A stretch of 52,019 nt of DNA from a virus (IMGVR_UViG_2724679140_000011:1-52019); one strand, 5' to 3'. Counted from the first letter of the stretch, positions 1 through 14,905 are shown. The notes: a model not told the origin generated them from the sequence alone. Translations and numbers: made by a program.

Positions 1-727
1 TTATCAGTTACAGGAAAACATAACCAGAGTATTCCGAAAAAGAGAATAATCAATAAAATATTGAAAATACATGGTGCCGGGTGCCTCCCGGTGAATTCTG
101 CAATGACCAGACAGAATCCGCTGCTTGCTACTCTCGCTAATGCAACCCAACCTGACGGTCATTATGCCCCGCCGCTGAGGGGGATTCACCATGCTGGGAC
201 TTTTTAACAAATTGCACTAAAATAACACAACGATTAATCGACAAAATCGTGATTGACTTAACATTTTATTTCTACCCGAAATTATCACTGATGTACTGCA
301 TTATCTTCTGAAAACTCTCAGCTTTCTGTTCAGCGCCCGTCGCACAACTCCCTGACGCCATAACAGCTTTTATGGCTGAGCCTGAACCAATGAAGAAATC
401 CGCTACCAGGTCCACTGAATGACTACCAGCACAAATTACGGATGTTTTTTCACAAGAATACTTACCCGGGTAAAATTGATCTGGCTTATTCGTCCACATA
501 TCAGTGTACGGTAATAACACTATCACACAAAAATACTGGCGCAGACCTTTATATTCACTAAGTCAGTCACTTCTGTGATACATACATGGCCTCGAGCCAG
601 TGGTGTGTTTTTCCCTTTTCTGGTTAACGTAACATACCAATAGCTCTTGTCTAAAAAGCCAGCAAGCTGAAAGACCGGTATTCGAAACCACCAGCGCGTT
701 TAACGTCCTGTGCCGCTTTTTGGGCGC

Positions 728-752
728 AAAAAACCCGCCAGGCGGCGGGTTT
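728..752. terminator. GC-rich hairpin (cccgcc-aggc-ggcggg) flanked by A6 upstream and TTT downstream; possible bidirectional terminator
   Basis: Inverted repeat read directly; the A-run gives a T6 tail on the minus strand. Confidence 0.3.
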
Positions 753-1049
753 AAGCTGTGTGGCGAAGTTACCCCTCTTCACCAAGTATTCGGTAATAAA
801 ATAACTTGTGGTGTTCTCGTTTTTATGCCGATAAAATAAACGGTCCACTTTCAAATGGAGCGATTCATGATTTTTCTCAGAACTGAAAACGGCATCTAGA
901 AACTTGAAAACTGGGAGGAAATTATATCCAGACCAAACTTTGTCACCACTATAGACAAAGGAGTTCAACAACTTGAGGAGATAATTGGTTACTACAAATT
1001 TAAAGAAGAAATCCACTGTGGTTTAACTGGTTGCAACCAACCACATCAA

Positions 1050-1787
1050 ATGGGTTATATTGTAAAAACATCTAGTGGCATTGAAACCAACATCGGAAAT
1101 AAATGTGGTAAAAACGAATTTGGTGTGGAATTTGGTGAAAACGTTCTTAGTTTCAATAAATTTATGCAACTCGAAACCAATCGGGAAATTATTAGTACCG
1201 CAAAAAGTAAATGTGAAGCGTGGCAAAAAAATATTGAAACGATACGAAATATCAAACCCACAATAGATTATCTATCTTCTACCATCGAAAATAGTAAAAA
1301 TTCCAATTACTCCGGAAGACTTGGTGCTACAGAAATTCGTTTTTTGACCAAGAGCCAGATAGGCCTTGTAACCCTTTCTGAAGTGGAAACTGATAAGAAT
1401 ACCAAAACAATTCTGTTCGCAATGAATGAACACATGCGCGAGTCTGGAGAAGCAATAAGTGAATTCTACATAGGAAAAGTATCATTTAGTCATGTTCTTT
1501 TACCAGAAAACAATCTTCGTGATTTTTTTGTTGCGCTCAAAGAAGATCTAAAAAAAATTCAGTGTATTGATCTACAAACAGCCCCAAGCCCAGAAATTTC
1601 TAATGTTGCCAAAATTGCCAGTTCAATCGAAGAACGAATCAAGCGATTAAAAAAACTGAAACATGAAGCCAGTAAATTCCTAACTAAAAAAAATCTGCGT
1701 CCCATCGCAAACAAAATAAAATACTCATCGACAGCGGATGAACTTGAATTCCATAATTTCGAACGCTTTTTAAACGGGCTGAAATGA
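1050..1787 (+). CDS. hypothetical protein, 245 aa, AT-rich isolated gene
   Basis: Long ORF in AT-rich DNA, flanked by hairpin terminators; frame is open upstream to an in-frame TAG at 897-899. Confidence 0.55.
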   Translation: MGYIVKTSSGIETNIGNKCGKNEFGVEFGENVLSFNKFMQLETNREIISTAKSKCEAWQKNIETIRNIKPTIDYLSSTIENSKNSNYSGRLGATEIRFLTKSQIGLVTLSEVETDKNTKTILFAMNEHMRESGEAISEFYIGKVSFSHVLLPENNLRDFFVALKEDLKKIQCIDLQTAPSPEISNVAKIASSIEERIKRLKKLKHEASKFLTKKNLRPIANKIKYSSTADELEFHNFERFLNGLK

Positions 1788-1812
1788 TAAAAGCCCCGAA
1801 AGGGGCTTCTAT
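1788..1812. terminator. rho-independent terminator hairpin (agcccc-gaaa-ggggct)
   Basis: Perfect 6-bp stem with GAAA loop directly after the stop of 1050..1787; A/T runs on both sides. Confidence 0.45.
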
Positions 1813-1901
1813 CAAAATCATTTACGCATTATTCCGCATGCTCAAAAGAATACATGACAGATTAGGACAAAATCAAGTGCAATGTCGCAAAAAGCCTAAG
1901 T

Positions 1902-2732
1902 TTAGTTCACATCATCACCAAAACTTGTCACATTCTGAAAAGCAATATCGGCCTTACGCTCTTCCTGGTGACAAATGTCAACCAGAGAATCAAGAAACGG
2001 CTTCCAATTACGTGTCCATGTCCTGACATGTAGCTCGGGTATCCGCTTCAGTACAACTTTATATACTGTGGTAGACGGTACCGTGGAAAATCCATTTCCG
2101 CTGCAACGTTCGCAGATTTTAAACACTGGCACACCACGCTCGCTTGTGGCTTTGCGGTCCAGTACCTCTCCCTTTCCACCACAACGACACCTGGCACTTA
2201 TCACTCCCTTCCCTTTACATACATCGCAAACGACTGGTACAACTTCCGTTACCTCTGTCCATTTCTCCCAGTCTGACGGTCGAACAGCACGGGAGCGACT
2301 GGCCCAATATGGTGCTTTACCCCATGGGTATGAAACCTTACGAATGACCTGCTTACGGGGTGTTAGTCCGGTACCACTGCAACTATGGCATGTTACGCTG
2401 GTGGCCGCCGATCGGGAATACTCAGCAAAAGCAAACTGAGCCAGTACCAGCATACACCAGCCAAATTCACCACCAGCTGCTTTACGCACATTCTTCGGTG
2501 CAATTTTCATCGCGTGACGCGCCAGCGCCTGGACTGCCATCTGCTCATCAGTCTTGCTGATACCGGCCTTCCCGAAGAAGGCCGCCAGGCCAAACCGCTC
2601 ACGATTGCTGGTGGTACCAATAGCCGCCATAACATCGGTGCCTGTAAGACGTTCCGGAGAGGTTCCTTTCACATCGTCGCCGATATACATTCCCTGAGGA
2701 CTGAAGTATTTTAGCGATACCTCAAGCTTCAT
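1902..2732 (-). CDS. DnaJ-type zinc-finger protein with four CxxCxGxG repeats; possibly a phage late regulator (Q-like position)
   Basis: CHSCSGTG, CDVCKGKG, CRCGGKG, CERCSGNG in translation; last gene of the minus-strand early operon. Confidence 0.6.
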   Translation of the reverse strand: MKLEVSLKYFSPQGMYIGDDVKGTSPERLTGTDVMAAIGTTSNRERFGLAAFFGKAGISKTDEQMAVQALARHAMKIAPKNVRKAAGGEFGWCMLVLAQFAFAEYSRSAATSVTCHSCSGTGLTPRKQVIRKVSYPWGKAPYWASRSRAVRPSDWEKWTEVTEVVPVVCDVCKGKGVISARCRCGGKGEVLDRKATSERGVPVFKICERCSGNGFSTVPSTTVYKVVLKRIPELHVRTWTRNWKPFLDSLVDICHQEERKADIAFQNVTSFGDDVN

Positions 2733-3589
2733 TATTCACACTCCCCAACCAGATTAAGAATAACCGCCTCGCCATTGTCTTTCATATATTCGCCCTTTCC
2801 GCTTGCCAAAAACCAACGACACACCTCCACGGCTTCAGCCCGTGTCACCGGTTTGATGGTCATCAGCAATTTTTCAAGGTAGCGCTCGCGGTCATATACC
2901 GATTCGTGATGCTCAGAGTAACCATACTCATCGCCCTGTTCTTTAGTCGCAGTGTGGCGAACACTGTAGAGCCAGTCCCAGTAAACAAACTCACGAACTA
3001 CATCTGACAATGTATGAGGCTCTGGCAGTACATCACGATAACCATCAACATATGCACGACGCTGATCATCAATTTCATTCATACGGATACCGTCAATGCT
3101 GCCCGCTTTCTTCTCGGCTGCAGTCCAGCCCCAGAGATGATCGTCGATAAATTTCTGGGAAGACTTGATCACTCGCTCGGCTTCCACATCTTCGAGTGCT
3201 GCTTCATAGCTACCAAACATAGCCCTGACTGATGCTGCTTTTTTGATATTCTCCCTGGCGTTTCTGATTGCCTGTGCCGGGTTATCCATGCCGATGGTAC
3301 CGAAAGCAATCTGGAAAGGATCGCCACCATTCGCCAGCAGATAACGCGAATAGCGTTCCTGGGCCTCTTTTGGGGAAATTTTAATTTTCACCAGCGCGGC
3401 CTCAGCAGCATCCAGATGTGCGGGTTCGTTCAGACGGATAACCTCCAGCACCCAAAGATAAGCATCAGTCTGCTTATGCCCGGTGATTCTCCTCTGCTCG
3501 GGCAGGGGCTTGATGTTTGCGAGGGCGGAGCTGTACGCTTCCGTCGGGATGGTGAATAGTACTTTATGTTCGTTGTTATCAGTACGCAT
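2732..3589 (-). CDS. hypothetical phage protein, 285 aa
   Basis: Start overlaps the downstream gene and abuts the primase stop; operon context. Confidence 0.6.
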   Translation of the reverse strand: MRTDNNEHKVLFTIPTEAYSSALANIKPLPEQRRITGHKQTDAYLWVLEVIRLNEPAHLDAAEAALVKIKISPKEAQERYSRYLLANGGDPFQIAFGTIGMDNPAQAIRNARENIKKAASVRAMFGSYEAALEDVEAERVIKSSQKFIDDHLWGWTAAEKKAGSIDGIRMNEIDDQRRAYVDGYRDVLPEPHTLSDVVREFVYWDWLYSVRHTATKEQGDEYGYSEHHESVYDRERYLEKLLMTIKPVTRAEAVEVCRWFLASGKGEYMKDNGEAVILNLVGECE

Positions 3590-4557
3590 TACGCAGCCGC
3601 CTTTTTCTTATGGAAAACCAGCTCTCGAACCTGATCACCGTTCATGAGCATATTGTTGAAATCATCGTGATCCGGCCAGTACACGCTCACGCGCTGCAGG
3701 TCATTCTTCGCCATCAGATTGGCATGAGCACATTCGCAAGCCGCAGCCAGCCCGGTGGCGCTGTTCTCGTCACGGTCGGCAAAAATAATCAGGTGCAGAA
3801 CACCAGCTGGTACGCGGAACTTTTTCATAAAGCCGCTGTTAATGGTTGCCCAGGTGTTCACGTTATAAATCTGGTGCGCTGACAGCGCTGTTTCGATGCC
3901 TTCGGCGATACCCAGAGTGCTGGCGACAGGAAACATGCGGATAGCTACAGAACGAGCGTGATCCAGATAGTTATCTTCCTGCAGGGATTTGAGGCGCTTT
4001 GCACTGCTACCGATATCTGCTTTTTTATCACCATCAAGCAGAGTCTGGTGCAGATAGCACAACTCCCCTTTATCGTCCGTAGCAAGTGAATAAAGAGACT
4101 GGAACACACTCCCGTTGTGTCTCTGCCTGGCATTGAACCGGATCGCCTCAGCAGGAAGACTGAATATTCCACGAGAATTAAGATACGCTGCGCCGGATGT
4201 ACCACGCAGTGCCTCCAGTTTTGAAAACTTGCTCAATACCCGTTTGCGTAAGCTGGTGGCGCTGCTGGTTACCGGGATTTTAACCCGTTGGTAATCATTA
4301 CCGATCAGGCGGTCTATTTCGGTACAAATCTCGTTAAATGGCTTCGCCTGTGTCAGGGTGACAAGTTTCATACCATCGCCACTACCACATACACAGATCC
4401 ACGTTCCTGCACCGTCGCGGTCATCAATTCTGAACTTACCACGTGCACCGCATACCGGGCATTCACCCTTGAAGTGATTTTTTCCGGTTATCGGCGGCAA
4501 GCCGAAGTGCTCTAATATTTCAGGCCAACGGCCTTTCGCTGCATCTGCTGTTTTCAT
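3589..4557 (-). CDS. DNA primase, zinc-ribbon plus TOPRIM domain
   Basis: CPVCGARGKFRIDDRDGAGTWICVCGSGDG zinc ribbon; TOPRIM-like IAEGIETALS and IIFADRDENSATG; N-terminus resembles P4 alpha primase. Confidence 0.8.
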   Translation of the reverse strand: MKTADAAKGRWPEILEHFGLPPITGKNHFKGECPVCGARGKFRIDDRDGAGTWICVCGSGDGMKLVTLTQAKPFNEICTEIDRLIGNDYQRVKIPVTSSATSLRKRVLSKFSKLEALRGTSGAAYLNSRGIFSLPAEAIRFNARQRHNGSVFQSLYSLATDDKGELCYLHQTLLDGDKKADIGSSAKRLKSLQEDNYLDHARSVAIRMFPVASTLGIAEGIETALSAHQIYNVNTWATINSGFMKKFRVPAGVLHLIIFADRDENSATGLAAACECAHANLMAKNDLQRVSVYWPDHDDFNNMLMNGDQVRELVFHKKKAAA

Positions 4558-4558
4558 C

Positions 4559-6217
4559 TTACTGACTCAGACTGTTTATATTTTTCTGGAGTTGTTGCTT
4601 TGCCTGCATAATGCGCCAAGCCTCACTTCCTTCCGGTGGAACATACCGGCCACCAACAACCAGTGGCAGAGAAAGCACTTCGGATGAGTTTTTCGTCATC
4701 CTCCGTGTCCGTTCACGACCTTTAGCAAACCGGATCAGTTTGTGTCTGATGTAGTTACTTACCTCTGGGCTTATTTCCATCGGGAAACTGCTCAACCCAT
4801 CAGGCCATTCACCGAATTTCTCCCTGAAAGTGTGAGCACACCATCCATCACTGACTGGACGCCCCAGCGAAGCACGCTGGCGCTGATAAAATTTGATCTG
4901 ACTCCACCAGGACTGTTTCTCTGCCTTCGTCGACTGATGCTGATTTTTACCCAGCTTATTAAGTTTGCGGCTGGTGTCAGTATCAACGTCTTCACCTCGC
5001 AGCGGCTTGTGTCCACATTTCGGGCAAACATAGACGCCAGCTGGCTTCATGTAGTGGCATTGAGAGCATTCATGTGGCAGTTTTTCGGCCCGTTCCTCAG
5101 CTGCGCGGCGCGCGCTTTCCTCCATGCCGTCAGACTTACCGGGAAGATCGTCGTACTCGATTGAATCCGGATAACCCAGACGGTGCACGGTGCCGCTGTG
5201 ATCGAAGATAAGGCAGGACTCTTTACCCGGTGCGGTGCGCAGTCCACGCCCGAGAGCCTGTAACCAGCGAATTTCGCTTTTTGTTGGCCTGGCGTAGATG
5301 ATGCAACGAACGTCACTATCGAAGCCGGCCACCAGAACGCCCACACTAACAATGATTTTCGTTGCACCGGTTTCAAAGCGGTGAATGATGGTCTGGCGCT
5401 CATCTACCGGAGTGTCTGCGGTCATTACCTCAGCGTTAACACCTGCGAGGTTAAACTGGATTGTCAGGTAATTGGCGTGGGCTACGTTGACGCAGAAAGC
5501 GATGGTAGGTAGATCCCGACCATTCTCCAGCCAGTTCTGTACGATGTCGCCCACCAGCGTAGATCCGCACATGATTTCAGCCAGCTGTGTTTCGTTGTAA
5601 TCGCGGCCGTACTCAAGCGAAGATGTGGTTTTAACACCTTTCAGATCCGGCTTAGTTGGCGCGTAAAATTCGTATTTACTCAGATCGCCACGCTGGATTA
5701 ACTCGCCGATGGTGGTCGGCTTAATCAGTCGGTCATAGTATTTGCCCAGGAACGGAGAAAACGGAGTACCCGACAGGCCAATCACCTTTACGCCTTTGCC
5801 GCGCAGACATTCGATATCCTTCAGGATGCGTTTTTTACGCAGGTGCGCTTCGTCGATAATCAGCAGATCGATATTTTCAGGAAAAACACGACGAATAAGC
5901 GTGTCAGCGCTGGCAATCTGAATTTTCCGGTCCGGATCGTAGTTCGGGTGATCCGCCCAGATATAACCGATTTCATCTCCAGGTAAACCATACTGCACAA
6001 ACCGATTAGCCGTCTGACCAATCAGGATGGTGTACGGAACACAGAACAGAACGCGCATACCACGGCTGACAAAACCAGCAACTATGAAGGCTGCCAGACC
6101 CGTTTTACCGCTACCGGTTGGCGAGTACACCATGAAGGTGTCGTTTGCCTTCCAGTCACGGCGCAACATGTTTAGCGCACGCTCCTGTGCAAAATTCGGC
6201 GTGATTGTCAGCTGCAT
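4559..6217 (-). CDS. SF2 DEAD/DEAH-box helicase, phage replicative helicase
   Basis: Walker A SPTGSGKT, DEAH box IIDEAH, motif VI QALGRGLR, C-terminal CxxC...CxxC zinc ribbon. Confidence 0.8.
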   Translation of the reverse strand: MQLTITPNFAQERALNMLRRDWKANDTFMVYSPTGSGKTGLAAFIVAGFVSRGMRVLFCVPYTILIGQTANRFVQYGLPGDEIGYIWADHPNYDPDRKIQIASADTLIRRVFPENIDLLIIDEAHLRKKRILKDIECLRGKGVKVIGLSGTPFSPFLGKYYDRLIKPTTIGELIQRGDLSKYEFYAPTKPDLKGVKTTSSLEYGRDYNETQLAEIMCGSTLVGDIVQNWLENGRDLPTIAFCVNVAHANYLTIQFNLAGVNAEVMTADTPVDERQTIIHRFETGATKIIVSVGVLVAGFDSDVRCIIYARPTKSEIRWLQALGRGLRTAPGKESCLIFDHSGTVHRLGYPDSIEYDDLPGKSDGMEESARRAAEERAEKLPHECSQCHYMKPAGVYVCPKCGHKPLRGEDVDTDTSRKLNKLGKNQHQSTKAEKQSWWSQIKFYQRQRASLGRPVSDGWCAHTFREKFGEWPDGLSSFPMEISPEVSNYIRHKLIRFAKGRERTRRMTKNSSEVLSLPLVVGGRYVPPEGSEAWRIMQAKQQLQKNINSLSQ

Positions 6218-6328
6218 TGTGCTGCCCCCGCAGTGATGAGATAATAATTTTGTGATGTGGTTTTCATGGATTCCTCCTCACATGGCTGGCGGCCTCCCCA
6301 AAGGCTGCCAGCCCCCTTCCGAATCAAC

Positions 6329-6697
6329 TCACTTAAATTTCGTCGCACGAATAACGTCAATTCCGTTCTCGCTATATCGAAGAGGGTGCTTACCATCCCT
6401 GAGCAGGACAAAACCTGACATCCCCTCAGGTAGCTGAGCCAGCTTCACCAACGAACGGTTGCGGGGAGACTTCTTATCGACCTCAATGGCACACTGCTGG
6501 CCGTCTGATGATGTAACCAGGCAATCAATAAACCCTTTACGACCACCGCTAATGCTGATGCTGAAATTGCGTTGCAGGTGGTATCCCTGAGACTTGATTT
6601 TTTTCTGCATCACATAATCGAAAACAACTTTGTCATCGGAGCGAATGAATCGCTCTTCCATGAGAGTGATTAAATTTTGCTTCAGGTCTTCACTCAT
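6329..6697 (-). CDS. hypothetical protein, 122 aa
   Basis: ORF in early-right operon between Cro-like gene and helicase. Confidence 0.5.
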   Translation of the reverse strand: MSEDLKQNLITLMEERFIRSDDKVVFDYVMQKKIKSQGYHLQRNFSISISGGRKGFIDCLVTSSDGQQCAIEVDKKSPRNRSLVKLAQLPEGMSGFVLLRDGKHPLRYSENGIDVIRATKFK

Positions 6698-6946
6698 ACT
6701 TTTTTATCCATCTTGTACTAGCTTTCTGGTACAACCGTTTTTTCAGGGGTATCCCCCTTTAGATCGAGATCTACCTAACCTATGTACCCGTCTGTTGGAA
6801 AAGCCTGTTCCAGTGCTTCGCACTAACACACGGGCACTCCTCCCCCTCCCCTCCTCTCATTGAATTTTGTGCGCACTCTTTAACTAGTACAAAAATGCAA
6901 TGAGATTTGGGATTCAGCCACCGGACACCTTTAAGCCCGGTACCAA

Positions 6947-7234
6947 TCAGGAGCGCGATTGCGTTCCTGCCAGGGGCGGCTGAGTTGTATACCCCTGTAA
7001 AGCTCTGCCCTGATTTCTCACAAACAGGCGAAGCCTTGTGTTTGCTTCATGCCTTGCCCGGTTCTCCTTGCGGTACGAAACGGGTTCGGCCTCGAACGTC
7101 TCCTGATACACAGCTGCATAACGCTGGATAGCTTTTTGTCGTGTAGTTGGTGTCAGGCTAAGTAACTGCTGCTGAATCCAAGAGGAATCTGCTTGGCTGA
7201 AATCAGAAGGCATTCCCTCAAAACCACCGTTCAT
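6947..7234 (-). CDS. hypothetical protein, 95 aa (cII-position gene)
   Basis: Stop/start abuts the Cro-like gene; position only, no motif recognised. Confidence 0.45.
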   Translation of the reverse strand: MNGGFEGMPSDFSQADSSWIQQQLLSLTPTTRQKAIQRYAAVYQETFEAEPVSYRKENRARHEANTRLRLFVRNQGRALQGYTTQPPLAGTQSRS

Positions 7235-7462
7235 TTAGCTATCGCTACATCTGAAAACTAACTGCTCTTTGGCTATAATTGGCTTTTCGGGAAACGACTT
7301 AGAAGCCGTTTCAATCGCCAGAGCTAAGCGTGGGGAAGCATTTCGATAGCCGTACGCGATGAGATTTAAGTAACCGGAAGATGTACCCGATTTTTCAGCA
7401 AGATCTACCCATTCTTCTTTTGTTGAGGACTTACGCCATGCAAGTAGCTGGTTGTTCATCAT
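7235..7462 (-). CDS. Cro-like XRE-family HTH regulator
   Basis: HTH-like segment LAEKSGTSSGYLNLIAYGYRNASPRLALAI; divergent from CI-like repressor across an operator region. Confidence 0.6.
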   Translation of the reverse strand: MMNNQLLAWRKSSTKEEWVDLAEKSGTSSGYLNLIAYGYRNASPRLALAIETASKSFPEKPIIAKEQLVFRCSDS

Positions 7463-7569
7463 GGTCTCCTATGCAATGAAACAACTTTAGCGATTTGCTA
7501 AATACAATGCAATAATCATTTAGCGTTTTGTGTATTTACCACATTGCTAAATGATGAGAGTATCTTTAC
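7463..7569. promoter_or_regulatory. divergent promoter/operator region (OR-like) with TTAGC...GCTAA dyads
   Basis: ttagcgatttgctaaa, tttagcgttttg...cattgctaaatg between the cro-like and cI-like starts. Confidence 0.55.
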
Positions 7570-8259
7570 ATGGACATAAAAAGCATTCGTAAATCAAACC
7601 TTGAGCGGCTCATAATCGAATATCTCAAGCGAGATGGGCACACAACTAAAGCCTCATTCGCTGAACTGTGTAGGATAAGCCCTGCTCAATTGAGCCAGCT
7701 ATTGGGTCGAAATAGCCACAGAAATGTGGGTGACAAACTGGCAAGAAGGATCGAAGCGGCTATGGAGCGACCTTATGGGTGGCTCGATGGTCTACATGGA
7801 GAAAAGGACGTTAATGAAAATGAATTAGAGTATGTAGGGGCTGTCAGACCGGGGGCAGTTCCAGTGGTAGGAGAGGCTATTCTAGGGATAGACGGAATGA
7901 TAGATATGCTAGAAATCCATGCAGGCTGGTTACAGATCTATAGCGCGGATAAAGACGCCTATGGATTGAAGGTAAAAGGCGATAGCATGTGGCCTAGAAT
8001 CCAGTCCGGAGAATACGTGGTCATAGAGCCAAACACTCCTATCCACCCTGGAGATGAAGTCTTCGTCCGCACAAAGGACGGACATAACATGATAAAGATA
8101 ATGAGTAAAACTCGAGATGGTGATTTTCAATTTTCCAGCGTGAATAGCGAGCATAGGCCTATCACAGTAAGCCCGGATGAAATCGAGAAAATGCACTTTG
8201 TTTCGGCTATTGTTAAACATACCCGTTATGTTGACAATGATGAGATGCCAATCATGTAG
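7570..8259 (+). CDS. CI-like repressor (N-terminal HTH, C-terminal S24 LexA-like peptidase domain)
   Basis: HTH near N-terminus; S24 motifs VKGDSMWP and MIKIMSKTRDG; 229 aa. Confidence 0.85.
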   Translation: MDIKSIRKSNLERLIIEYLKRDGHTTKASFAELCRISPAQLSQLLGRNSHRNVGDKLARRIEAAMERPYGWLDGLHGEKDVNENELEYVGAVRPGAVPVVGEAILGIDGMIDMLEIHAGWLQIYSADKDAYGLKVKGDSMWPRIQSGEYVVIEPNTPIHPGDEVFVRTKDGHNMIKIMSKTRDGDFQFSSVNSEHRPITVSPDEIEKMHFVSAIVKHTRYVDNDEMPIM

Positions 8260-8339
8260 CCTGCCAATTATCCTCACGCAAGCCGACCTCTTGGTCGGTT
8301 TTTTTTATGGGCATCAGCATATCAAATACTCATATTTAT

Positions 8340-8410
8340 CAAAAGCATAAAGAAAAAAGCAAATAATTTAGCATTTTAGTATTGCTCATGATTTACCATT
8401 TTGCTAAATT
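8340..8410. promoter_or_regulatory. second operator-like cluster (OL/PL-like)
   Basis: tttagcattttagtattgctca and ttttgctaaa half-sites resembling the 7463-7569 dyads. Confidence 0.4.
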
Positions 8411-8735
8411 CATTTCATCGGCAACCAACGGAGCCAATGAGATGAACACAAACTCCCAACATAAACCAATTGGCCAGATATTTGATATTCACGCCAAGCT
8501 TAGATCAGCAAATTCGCATTGGTCTTATTGCCATGCTGTGCAGCCTCACGATAAAGGATTTGATTACCAATTTAATACGATATTTGCCGGTGAGATGGAG
8601 TTCGCCGTTTACGAACGCATCGAAAATTATTTTGTATTAGTTGATTTCTTCAAGTCATATGACGAGGCATGTGATGATGCTAAAAAAATCATTGATGAAC
8701 ATCCTGACATAAAAAAAATGCTCTCTACCATTTAA
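8382..8735 (+). CDS. hypothetical early-left protein (likely true start near 8442, MNTNSQ...)
   Basis: First ORF after the OL-like sites; not arginine-rich so not an obvious N analogue. Confidence 0.5.
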   Translation: MLMIYHFAKFISSATNGANEMNTNSQHKPIGQIFDIHAKLRSANSHWSYCHAVQPHDKGFDYQFNTIFAGEMEFAVYERIENYFVLVDFFKSYDEACDDAKKIIDEHPDIKKMLSTI

Positions 8736-9238
8736 CTAAGTAATTAACTCAACTAATCGTCATTAACACCTTTTCGGGTGGGGAAAAACTCACCCTGAGG
8801 AAATGAAAATGCAAAATTCACTTTTTTTAACGAGCCAATTAAAACACCACAAATGCTTTTCGGCTCTGACAATATTAATGATTTTGGAAACAGAGTTAAG
8901 AGTTGCAGGACGGAAGGTGATTCAATGCAGCCGACTATCGAACCCTGCGAGGTTGTTGTTGCTTTCGTTGATTGTGGTGGCCGCGTTCTTACACCCAGCA
9001 TCTATATCTATGTTTTTTACGGGCGATATTTTTGGTCGTAACCACCTGTTTATCAAGAGAATAAAACCCTTGCCGGACGGGTCACTAAAGAATATTTCTG
9101 ACAATCTCCATTACCAAACTTTCGCACTTAATACTGGTGAGCAAAAAGACATCCGTATTCACGGAAGAGTTGTCGCATCTTTAGCTGTGAGGCGCTTCGT
9201 ATGACTTTCATCAAAGATAAATCGGCATATAGATCAGC

Positions 9239-13562: not shown

Positions 13563-13772
13563 GTGGGGCTGGATTGCGTACCTATATCAACCTACTGCCG
13601 CAACGCGGGAGAAACGCTTGATGCCGTTAACAAACGGATACAAAGAGGAATATGGAAAGAAGGGGTACATGTATTAAAAGTCGACGGAGTTAAAGAACGT
13701 TGGGTCGACTTAATGGAGATTACAAAATGGGCAAGAAAGAACAAGGATCATTATCTCTCCCTAGAGGAGTAA
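13563..13772 (+). CDS. excisionase-like (Xis/AlpA-type) small DNA-binding protein
   Basis: 69-aa basic protein immediately upstream of and overlapping the integrase; GTG start with gaggtg SD. Confidence 0.45.
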   Translation: MGLDCVPISTYCRNAGETLDAVNKRIQRGIWKEGVHVLKVDGVKERWVDLMEITKWARKNKDHYLSLEE

Positions 13773-14905
13773 CTATTCGCCAGCATAAAACTGGCAGCAC
13801 CCTGGTTATCACTTTTACATATAAAGGGGTTCTGTGTCGGGAGCCCCTCTCCAGAATGGAAGCAAACGCGCGCGGTGTGAAGTACGCCGAGCGCCTGCTC
13901 GGGGAGATACAAAACCAGATCGTCAGTGGCACCTTTGAATATGCGAAATATTTCCCCAACTCCAAAAAGCTGGAGCTGTTCGGGGTGGTGAAGAAAACCA
14001 AAAACATAAAGTCCTACCTGGACGAGTACCTGAAAATCTGCCAGAACCGCAACCTGTCCCCGTCGACTATAAATGGTTATGAAAAATGCCTGTCGGCACT
14101 GTCAGCTCTGCATAAACTCCACGTGTCAGAACTGACGCCAGCGGTCCTTAAAAACTGGATAGCCAGCCGGAAAACAAAGCTGAAAACGACCAGGAATAAC
14201 CTTTCGTTTCTGCGCAGCGCCATTGATGAAGCTGTTACGGATGGCCTGCTGACCATTAACCCGGTAACCCTCGTCAGCGCCAGCCGGTACCACGTGATCG
14301 ACAGCAGCCCGAGCGCCGACGATTACGAGGTTGACCCGTTCACGCCAGCGGAGACCCTTGCCATTTACCAGAGCTGCAGGTACACGGAATGGGAAAACCT
14401 GTTCCGCTTTGCTTTCAATACAGGTCTGCGGAGCTCAGAACTGTGCGCGCTGCGCTGGGCTGATCTCGACACCATCGCGAACACAGCCCACGTTCAGGCG
14501 GCCAGTGTCGTAGGGATACTTAAAGGCACCAAGACAAAAGCCGGTACCCGTAAGGTGGAGCTGAACAGTGAGGCGCTGGCGGCCCTGCAGGCGCAGAAGC
14601 AATACACCTTTATGAAAAGTGAGTTCATATTCAGCGATCCGAAAACGGGAGAACCCTGGACGAACGCCGACGCTATCCGTAAAAAAGCATGGGTGCCGAC
14701 CCTGAAAAAAGCTGGTGTGCGCTACCGTAACCCGTACCAGACGCGCCACACATTCGCCACCAGACACATTAGCCAAGGTGTAAACCTTTTCTGGCTTGCC
14801 GGGCAGATGGGGCATAAGGGGCCGGAAATGCTGTTCCGCAATTACGGTAAATACCTGGCTGAATACGACGGGAAAACCGCAATGGAAGCTGGAATGAAGA
14901 AGTGA
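13700..14905 (+). CDS. tyrosine integrase, lambda-Int type (probable start 13727)
   Basis: C-terminal catalytic region with ...RHTFATRHISQGVNLFWLAGQMGHKGPEMLFRNYGKY (R...H..R..Y). Confidence 0.85.
   Translation: MGRLNGDYKMGKKEQGSLSLPRGVTIRQHKTGSTLVITFTYKGVLCREPLSRMEANARGVKYAERLLGEIQNQIVSGTFEYAKYFPNSKKLELFGVVKKTKNIKSYLDEYLKICQNRNLSPSTINGYEKCLSALSALHKLHVSELTPAVLKNWIASRKTKLKTTRNNLSFLRSAIDEAVTDGLLTINPVTLVSASRYHVIDSSPSADDYEVDPFTPAETLAIYQSCRYTEWENLFRFAFNTGLRSSELCALRWADLDTIANTAHVQAASVVGILKGTKTKAGTRKVELNSEALAALQAQKQYTFMKSEFIFSDPKTGEPWTNADAIRKKAWVPTLKKAGVRYRNPYQTRHTFATRHISQGVNLFWLAGQMGHKGPEMLFRNYGKYLAEYDGKTAMEAGMKK

Follow-up and report, generated by a model that had tools for sequence, protein, structure and literature searches.

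The DNA analysed here is a viral stretch of 52,019 nucleotides (IMGVR_UViG_2724679140_000011:1-52019), which as a whole is referred to as the window, and the gene under study is an ATG-started open reading frame (ORF) on its minus strand, at positions 1902-2732, encoding 276 amino acids (aa). In this study, we report that its product is very probably the late antiterminator Q of a complete and active lambdoid prophage, belonging to the Q-lambda family, and describe a conserved block directly after the gene that is predicted to hold the late promoter. The original prediction for this locus had described a DnaJ-type zinc-finger protein with four repeats, standing where lambdoid phages encode a late antiterminator yet followed by no lysis or structural genes, and had proposed that it regulates the genes of a helper phage or acts as a chaperone-like factor.

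The Q gene and its family

The ORF map placed Q last among seven tightly packed, co-directional genes that run from 7462 down to 1902, and bore out the earlier description of a 276-aa protein that ends the early operon. The start codon of Q overlaps the stop codon of the preceding ORF. The operon consists, in order, of a cro-like helix-turn-helix (HTH) gene, two genes of unknown function, a DEAD-box helicase, a primase with Toprim and zinc-ribbon domains, a phrog_6204 gene of unknown function and Q, and a cI-like repressor of the S24 type (7570-8259, plus strand, 229 aa) diverges from it. The same order was found in the Stx2f-converting phage phi467 (LN997803), Cronobacter phage ENT39118 and Klebsiella phage ST11-OXA48phi15.1. 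The operon, the gene and the parts of its product are as follows.

1902-7462, minus strand: early-right operon ending with Q, from the ORF map and family matches
1902-2732, minus strand: Q gene, from the ORF, PF03589, phrog_127, sequence and fold matches to lambda Q, and the RefSeq name
2553-2732, minus strand: N-terminal counterpart of the lambda torus/nozzle segment, codons 1-60, colinear with lambda Q 1-60
2196-2396, minus strand: insertion absent from lambda Q, codons 113-179, from MAFFT, HMMER and AlphaFold2 (AF2)
2091-2189, minus strand: lambda-type ribbon of four cysteines (Cys4), codons 182-214, with motifs 3 (CRCGGKG) and 4 (CERCSGNG)
1983-2075, minus strand: C-terminal HTH helices, codons ~220-250, homologous to the HTH of the lambda Q body

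Searches by profile, by sequence and by fold agreed on Q-lambda, which upholds the placing of the gene at the late-antiterminator position of lambdoid phages. The Pfam match was to PF03589 'Antitermination protein Q' (175.8 bits against a cut-off of 26.7, in two stretches), which is the Q-lambda family of Yin et al. 2022 (PMC9388147), and phrog_127, 'anti-termination protein Q-like', matched over the full length (residues 1-270, E=1.3e-98). A phmmer search of the Protein Data Bank (PDB) matched lambda Q alone (7ubm_Q, E=2.9e-36); the HMMER alignment set residues 1-123 on lambda 1-126 and residues 180-268 on lambda 116-205, with an identity of ~43% in the aligned parts. When the AF2 model of Q (mean predicted local distance difference test (pLDDT) score of 74) was compared with the PDB using Foldseek, eight Q-lambda chains were the only significant fold matches, the best being 7ubn_Q (E=1.3e-11, target-normalised TM 0.77), and all non-Q matches were no better than E=2. 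Neither Q21 (PF06530) nor Q82 (PF06323) was among the Pfam matches to Q at E<=0.01. These two families share with the present Q its regulatory role and its genome position in lambdoid phages; there is no obvious sequence similarity between the Q-lambda, Q21 and Q82 families, and the relation of Q-lambda to Q21 is one of functional analogy, not of structural homology (PMC9388147).

Lambda Q is built from a four-helix body with an HTH, a zinc-ribbon arm and a 60-residue N-terminal segment (PMC9388147), and alignment made all three parts recognisable in the present Q. At the N terminus the alignment to lambda reads MKLEVSLKYFSP / MRLESVAKFHSP and LTGTDVMAAIG / LSGTDVMAAMG, with G39 invariant. Residues 1-60 of lambda Q are disordered when free and, with NusA, fold into a torus or nozzle at the RNA exit channel (PMC9388147); the low pLDDT of codons 1-60 in the model (50-67) is what would be expected of such a disordered segment. 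The predicted recognition helix HVRTWTRNWKPF aligned to lambda 'AAYRAVTMLIPNLTQPTWSRTVKPLYDAL', and the helices at residues 220-230 and 236-272 had a pLDDT of 84-92. The assignment to Q-lambda is thus made on a profile score above threshold, colinearity that includes the N terminus, a Cys4 arm and body fold, and the position of the gene. The original prediction had named a family unrelated to transcription control as the result that would tell against a regulatory role; the family found is one of transcription antiterminators. The RefSeq name of the protein, WP_061892491.1, is 'antitermination protein', at 90% identity it falls in a cluster of 104 sequences from 80 contigs, and PADLOC returned nothing for Q.

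Of the four CxxCxGxG repeats first described, a regular-expression search confirmed three, CHSCSGTG (residue 115), CDVCKGKG (169) and CERCSGNG (207), whereas the remaining motif, CRCGGKG at residue 182, is CxCxGxG and one residue short. The spacings between the motifs are ~54, 13 and 25 residues. Three exact motifs, together with one or more of the CxCxGxG type, were also present in 116 of the 120 closest homologues. Alignment of 68 sequences showed no variation at any of the eight cysteines, and the motifs are therefore genuine and not due to chance. Repeated CxxCxGxG knuckles, which in the present Q are predicted to bind zinc in pairs, also make up the zinc-binding CR domain of DnaJ/Hsp40 (PF00684), and the protein could be read as a DnaJ-like zinc-finger chaperone or holdase that acts on unfolded proteins. 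Three exact motifs and one near-exact motif, weak DnaJ profile matches and a precomputed PF00684 flag on many Q homologues speak for such a chaperone. Both profile matches, however, lie below the curated cut-offs: Pfam DnaJ_CXXCXGXG scored 25.7 bits against a gathering score of 32.7 (E=1.4e-5) and covered only residues 169-215, that is motifs 2-4, and NCBIfam DnaJ_bact scored 21.9 bits against 377.2 (E=9.6e-5). No J domain, G/F region or DnaJ C-terminal domain was found in Q with Pfam (E<=0.01) and NCBIfam. The arm region alone, compared with PDB sequences at E up to 10, matched lambda Q and no DnaJ, and no DnaJ structure was among the Foldseek fold matches. Moreover, leaving the motifs aside, the rest of the protein follows lambda Q in colinear fashion, beginning at residue 1 and continuing to the C-terminus. 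Since the ribbon of lambda Q uses the same kind of knuckle, the CxxCxGxG motif does not discriminate Q from DnaJ. The DnaJ label therefore stands at motif level, the only level at which the resemblance exists, and fails at the level of profiles, domains and structures; a chaperone is an extremely improbable function for this protein.

Two neighbours of Q were noted in addition. The product of the gene at 2732-3589 (minus strand) has 285 aa and no known function, and it matches phrog_6204 (E=9e-183) but no Pfam family. The gene is translationally coupled between the primase and Q; it occupies the same position in phi467 and ENT39118, and shorter ORFs are found instead in Escherichia phage CharmingMan and the Klebsiella phage. 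A second, shorter ORF annotated as an S24 family peptidase (8803-9204, plus strand) stands in tandem with the cI-like repressor, and its counterpart in phi467 is called DicA-like.

Late genes of the source prophage

The window holds only 1.9 kb to the left of Q, and no lysis or structural gene is found in it. Positions 1-9000 are 100% identical to the chromosome of E. coli strain IGC_EcoliInv_1.1 (NZ_CP054665.1), from position 2791421, and the extended sequence to the left, where the original prediction had suggested looking, could be inspected there. It contains, in the orientation of Q and starting from window position 1, a DUF1737 pseudogene, a DUF826 gene, a class II holin, a lysozyme and an Rz-type protein, the holin beginning about 1.5 kb outside the window. 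Beyond the lysis cassette are the genes for the small and large terminase subunits, portal, protease, decoration protein and major capsid protein, followed by tail genes (tail tube, tape measure and onward to J and tail fibre) that end at ssrA. At the other end of the element, excisionase and integrase genes (window 13563-14905) adjoin CP4-57 intA. The statement that Q is followed by neither lysis nor structural genes was consequently mistaken: the full late region is present, and its absence from the window is an artefact of the window edge. Lysis genes likewise follow Q in every phage inspected, namely phi467, ENT39118, CharmingMan, ST11-OXA48phi15.1 and ES18, which has a more distant Q with four motifs.

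The prophage is ~46 kb long, with ssrA as its left boundary and CP4-57 intA as its right, and its strain came from a 'G2 mouse'. Phage Nef, described by Frazao et al. 2019 (PMC6731689), has a genome of 46,170 bp, resides at ssrA, is inducible with mitomycin, forms particles and lysogenises. The prophage fits Nef in strain, site and size.

With no lysis or structural gene downstream of Q anywhere in the 52-kb window, the protein could have served as regulator in a satellite or defective element devoid of late genes of its own, where it would switch on those of a helper phage. Such an element is scarcely credible here, given that a full lysis and morphogenesis region lies in the same chromosome and orientation, bounded by ssrA, that integrase and excisionase genes stand at the other end, and that the published phage at the ssrA site makes its own particles (PMC6731689). 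Because the late genes are present, the helper-phage and chaperone proposals both lose their premise, and with it go three false leads: missing late genes, a helper-phage regulator and a chaperone. Late genes that follow Q just beyond the edge of the window make the finding an ordinary one. This Q is already known: RefSeq and phage records list it as an antitermination protein, and the family to which it belongs has been characterised mechanistically and structurally.

The conserved block after the Q gene

The Q stop codon is at 1904-1902, and comparative alignment revealed a conserved block directly after it in five phages. Identity to the window was 63-69% in the block, as against 24-45% in the flanks, and the block pattern occurred once in the window with 0 occurrences expected by chance. 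The following features were located on this side of Q by sequence reading, comparative alignment and folding.

1847-1876, minus strand: predicted late promoter PR', from the block conserved in five phages
1828-1833, minus strand: candidate sigma-dependent pause element AATAAT (-10-like), at about +7 to +12
1786-1813, minus strand: intrinsic terminator, candidate tR', GAUAGAAGCCCC-UUUC-GGGGCUUUUAUC, from folding and alignment
725-755, minus strand: second hairpin with U-run, AAACCCGCCGCCUGGCGGGUUUUUUG, -17.7 kcal/mol with a z of only -1.5

The predicted PR' has a -35 element TTGATT at 1876-1871 (consensus TTGAYT) and a -10 element TATTCT at 1852-1847 (TAYNCT), separated by a spacer of 18 nt (1870-1853) with the pattern TTGTCC.AA..TGTC.TG. 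The spacer carries a candidate Q-binding element with sub-sites GTCC (1868-1865) and TGTC (1859-1856). A conserved purine, the A at about 1839, lies 8 nt past the -10 element and is predicted to be the start, and the candidate pause element AATAAT sits in a conserved stretch (GGAATAATGCG / GGATATAACGCC). In phage mEp460, which has a four-motif Q, the matching place is taken by lambda's own AACGATGGG pause sequence, with a terminator nearby. The fold of 1813-1786 has an energy of -22.3 kcal/mol and a z of -5.7, none of 200 shuffled sequences folded as well, and a hairpin with a T-run stands at the same place in all five phages. The terminator is bidirectional, and also ends a convergent ORF on the plus strand (1050-1787).

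Q-dependent cassettes are laid out as PR', Q-binding element, sigma-dependent pause element and tR' (PMC9388147), and the block after Q is predicted to be a cassette of this usual PR'/pause/tR' form, its start, pause site, Q-binding element and activity all being putative. The spacer of PR' changes together with the protein: the recognition helix HVRTWTR goes with a spacer that starts TTGTCC, and HQSSWSR with TTGCAT. Neither the arm sequence nor TGTC, the sub-site ~10 bp downstream, differs between the two groups. The Q-binding element of lambda is 13 bp long and bipartite, the body contacting positions 1-4 and the arm positions 11-13 (PMC9388147). Co-variation of helix and spacer, together with the constant TGTC, supports the assignment of the Q-binding element and fits the 13-bp element of lambda.

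A genuine Q might nevertheless act at a late promoter elsewhere than 1876-1828, for example beyond the antisense ORF and upstream of the hairpin at 755-725, the hairpin at 1813-1786 then serving as no more than a terminator for the early operon and the convergent moron. The proposed hexamers are indeed weak (8 of 12 matches), the 1813-1786 hairpin serves ORF 1050-1787 as well, and many E. coli prophages have the module from 728 to about 7100 (728-7099) in common as one unit. However, the block also follows Q in phages that have no antisense ORF, among them the Klebsiella phage ST11-OXA48phi15.1, where only ~400 bp separate Q from the holin, and a promoter elsewhere is disfavoured on this account. 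The co-variation of the spacer with the recognition helix also argues against it, and no comparable conserved promoter was seen in 760-1050. We regard a different site for the promoter as quite unlikely, and PR' at 1876-1847 as the preferred assignment.

Several points weigh against this account of Q and its promoter. A consensus promoter and terminator scan of positions 1-2100 listed neither PR' nor either of the strong hairpins. PR' was left out because it matches 8 of 12 consensus positions, the scanner's threshold being 9; the hairpins were skipped, we think, because the scanner's stem extension consumed the T-run. The -10-like element ends in C, and not T, in the three diverged phages of the five, which makes its role in a sigma-dependent pause uncertain. 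The predicted terminated leader, at ~51 nt, is much shorter than that of lambda, and the late transcript would have to run across the opposite-strand ORF 1050-1787. As for the prophage itself, its probable identity with Nef follows from strain, insertion site and length, and no experiment was found on the present Q or its promoter.

By homology with lambda, the HTH body and zinc-ribbon arm of Q would bind the Q-binding element in the PR' spacer (promoter at about 1876-1847). Polymerase starting from PR' would pause a few bases on, where sigma70 may re-bind the -10-like candidate AATAAT at 1833-1828, and Q would then transfer to the paused polymerase; with NusA, its N-terminal 60 residues would form a nozzle at the exit channel that blocks terminator hairpins. 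The modified polymerase could in this way pass the terminator at 1813-1786 and then the second hairpin at 755-725. It would cross ~3.3 kb of accessory DNA, comprising the antisense moron, the second terminator, a methylase remnant, STnc100 and pseudogenes, and transcription would then reach the genes for lysis (holin, lysozyme, Rz), terminase, head and tail that lie left of the window. The inducibility and particle formation reported for the prophage at the ssrA site (PMC6731689) lend this loading and read-through indirect support.

The accessory DNA itself holds several elements. ORF 1050-1787 (plus strand, 245 aa, unknown function) converges on Q and is antisense within the predicted late transcript. 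It matches phrog_7003 (E=3.5e-79) at profile positions 62-309 only and is therefore N-terminally short; it has no Pfam or PADLOC match, and its homologue in phi467, at the same place, is split into two ORFs. At 272-526 (minus strand) is an 84-aa C-terminal remnant of a type II DNA methyltransferase (PADLOC PDLC03265, E=1e-15, profile positions 249-330 of 333); in mEp460 the methylase found downstream of Q, in a similar location, is intact. A full-length STnc100 small RNA (sRNA; Rfam RF02076, 96.2 bits against a gathering score of 47, E=4e-21) was identified at 16-224 (minus strand), between Q and the lysis cassette and in the direction of late transcription; a 2026 preprint has linked the STnc100 and PasD sRNAs to prophages with PF03589 Q genes. 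Some O157 matches carry tRNA-Arg features that have no counterpart here, the stretch being STnc100 by Rfam, and ARAGORN found no tRNA or tmRNA in the window. Weak Rfam matches to Thr_leader, P9 and sn2343, far below their gathering scores, were dismissed as chance. Further left, outside the window, the stretch from Q to the terminase contains the decayed DUF1737 pseudogene, a partial YdfR and a frameshifted AlpA-family gene amid intact lysis genes.

The inserted arm segment and related antiterminators

The present Q is colinear over its whole length with lambda Q (PDB 4MO1, 7UBJ-7UBN) and with its close relative P22 gp23. It shares with lambda Q the torus segment, the four-helix HTH body, the Cys4 arm and the position at the end of the early right operon; in both phages a promoter, a -10-like element, a terminator and then lysis genes come after Q. 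The two proteins differ in the arm. Lambda and P22 have two Cys-pair motifs and the present Q has four, with ~67 residues (113-179) inserted just before the lambda-type ribbon. The third motif of the present Q is CxC, where lambda has CxxC, and the candidate pause element lies at about +7 to +12, as against +1 to +6 in lambda.

MAFFT placed the lambda Cys pairs opposite motifs 3 and 4 and left residues 113-179 unmatched, and the HMMER match to lambda Q was split as 1-123 and 180-268, bracketing the insertion. In the alignment, motifs 3 and 4 are the counterpart of lambda C118, C121, C144 and C147, within the zinc-ribbon arm described in PMC9388147. The lambda sequence 'ARCRDCHGTG...CGRCKGVG' has its pairs CRDCHGTG and CGRCKGVG 26 residues apart, compared with 25 here, and ARCR precedes in both proteins. 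Within the insertion, motif 1 (CHSCSGTG) and motif 2 (CDVCKGKG) enclose a long beta-hairpin, for which the AF2 model gives paired 12-residue beta-strands at 123-134 and 157-168.

On the strength of alignment and modelling, we take residues 113-179 to be a second zinc ribbon, located at the arm base. The four Cys motifs are predicted to bind two zinc ions, most likely paired as motifs 1+2 and 3+4, so that motifs 3 and 4 would form the lambda-type ribbon and motifs 1 and 2 would clamp a beta-hairpin of variable length at the arm base. A DnaJ-like pairing of 1+4 and 2+3 was also considered and judged less likely. The 1+2 and 3+4 pairing is preferred because the lambda ribbon aligns with motifs 3+4 at equal spacing, because the stretch from motif 1 to motif 2 is predicted to pair with itself as a hairpin, and because this stretch varies from 14 to 63 residues among relatives. 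It counts against this pairing that it derives solely from the alignment and predicted secondary structure, and that AF2 confidence is moderate, with an arm pLDDT of 65-82.

The arm with additional Cys pairs is widespread. A single-piece match over at least 80% of the query was obtained for 133 of 250 phage records; among the matches listed, ES18, mEp460, Stx2c phages and Klebsiella, Cronobacter and Providencia phages matched in one piece, and lambda and P22 in two. Cys pairs were surveyed in 55 near-full-length representatives of 50%-identity clusters: 23 had exactly four, several had five or six, and 12 had two. The canonical members with four pairs have a motif 1-2 spacing of 14-63 residues and, in nearly all, a motif 2-3 spacing of 13. 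The hairpin between motifs 1 and 2 is variable in length, and Trp-rich in the lineage of the present Q.

Relatives at 62-67% identity to Q were found in ENT39118, CharmingMan and ST11-OXA48phi15.1. ES18 gp73, the mEp460 late gene regulator, the Q of Stx2c phages and that of Providencia PSTCR3 also have four Cys pairs and stand upstream of lysis genes. They align with the present Q in a single piece at 37-43% identity, and differ from it in a shorter motif 1-2 hairpin and in their recognition helices and promoter spacers. The third motif of the mEp460 protein is a regular CxxC, and this regulator is annotated as similar to the Q of the Qin prophage.

The closest comparison is with phi467, whose early region is nearly identical to that of the prophage: its Q is 98.6% identical and is preceded by the same helicase, primase and phrog_6204 genes, its PR' block is identical at 50 of 52 positions, and the terminator and downstream antisense ORF are nearly identical. 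After Q, phi467 has the antisense ORF, stx2fA/B, two tRNA genes and then S, R and Rz; the present prophage has the methylase remnant, the STnc100 sRNA and pseudogenes instead, and no toxin genes. The genes flanking stx2f have been called q and s (PMC7366253). Because a near-identical Q stands upstream of stx2f in phi467, the predicted PR', pause and terminator block offers a concrete candidate control region for Stx2f expression.

For the family, a two-ribbon arm is commoner among the sampled relatives, yet the solved Q-lambda structures are all of the single-ribbon lambda protein and none has the extra ribbon. The arm surface beside the insertion site contacts the zinc-binding domain of the RNA polymerase beta' subunit in lambda Q (PMC9388147), and the insertion is also near the arm tip, which repositions sigma region 4 in lambda Q. 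As the extra ribbon adjoins a surface that contacts polymerase, we tentatively suggest, as a possibility and not as the expected outcome, that it gives Q a different loading geometry, lambda Q then being a minimal and atypical member of its family. If so, the pause element would lie further downstream (~+7 to +12), the spacing from the Q-binding element to the pause would differ, and Q may make extra contacts with polymerase or DNA.

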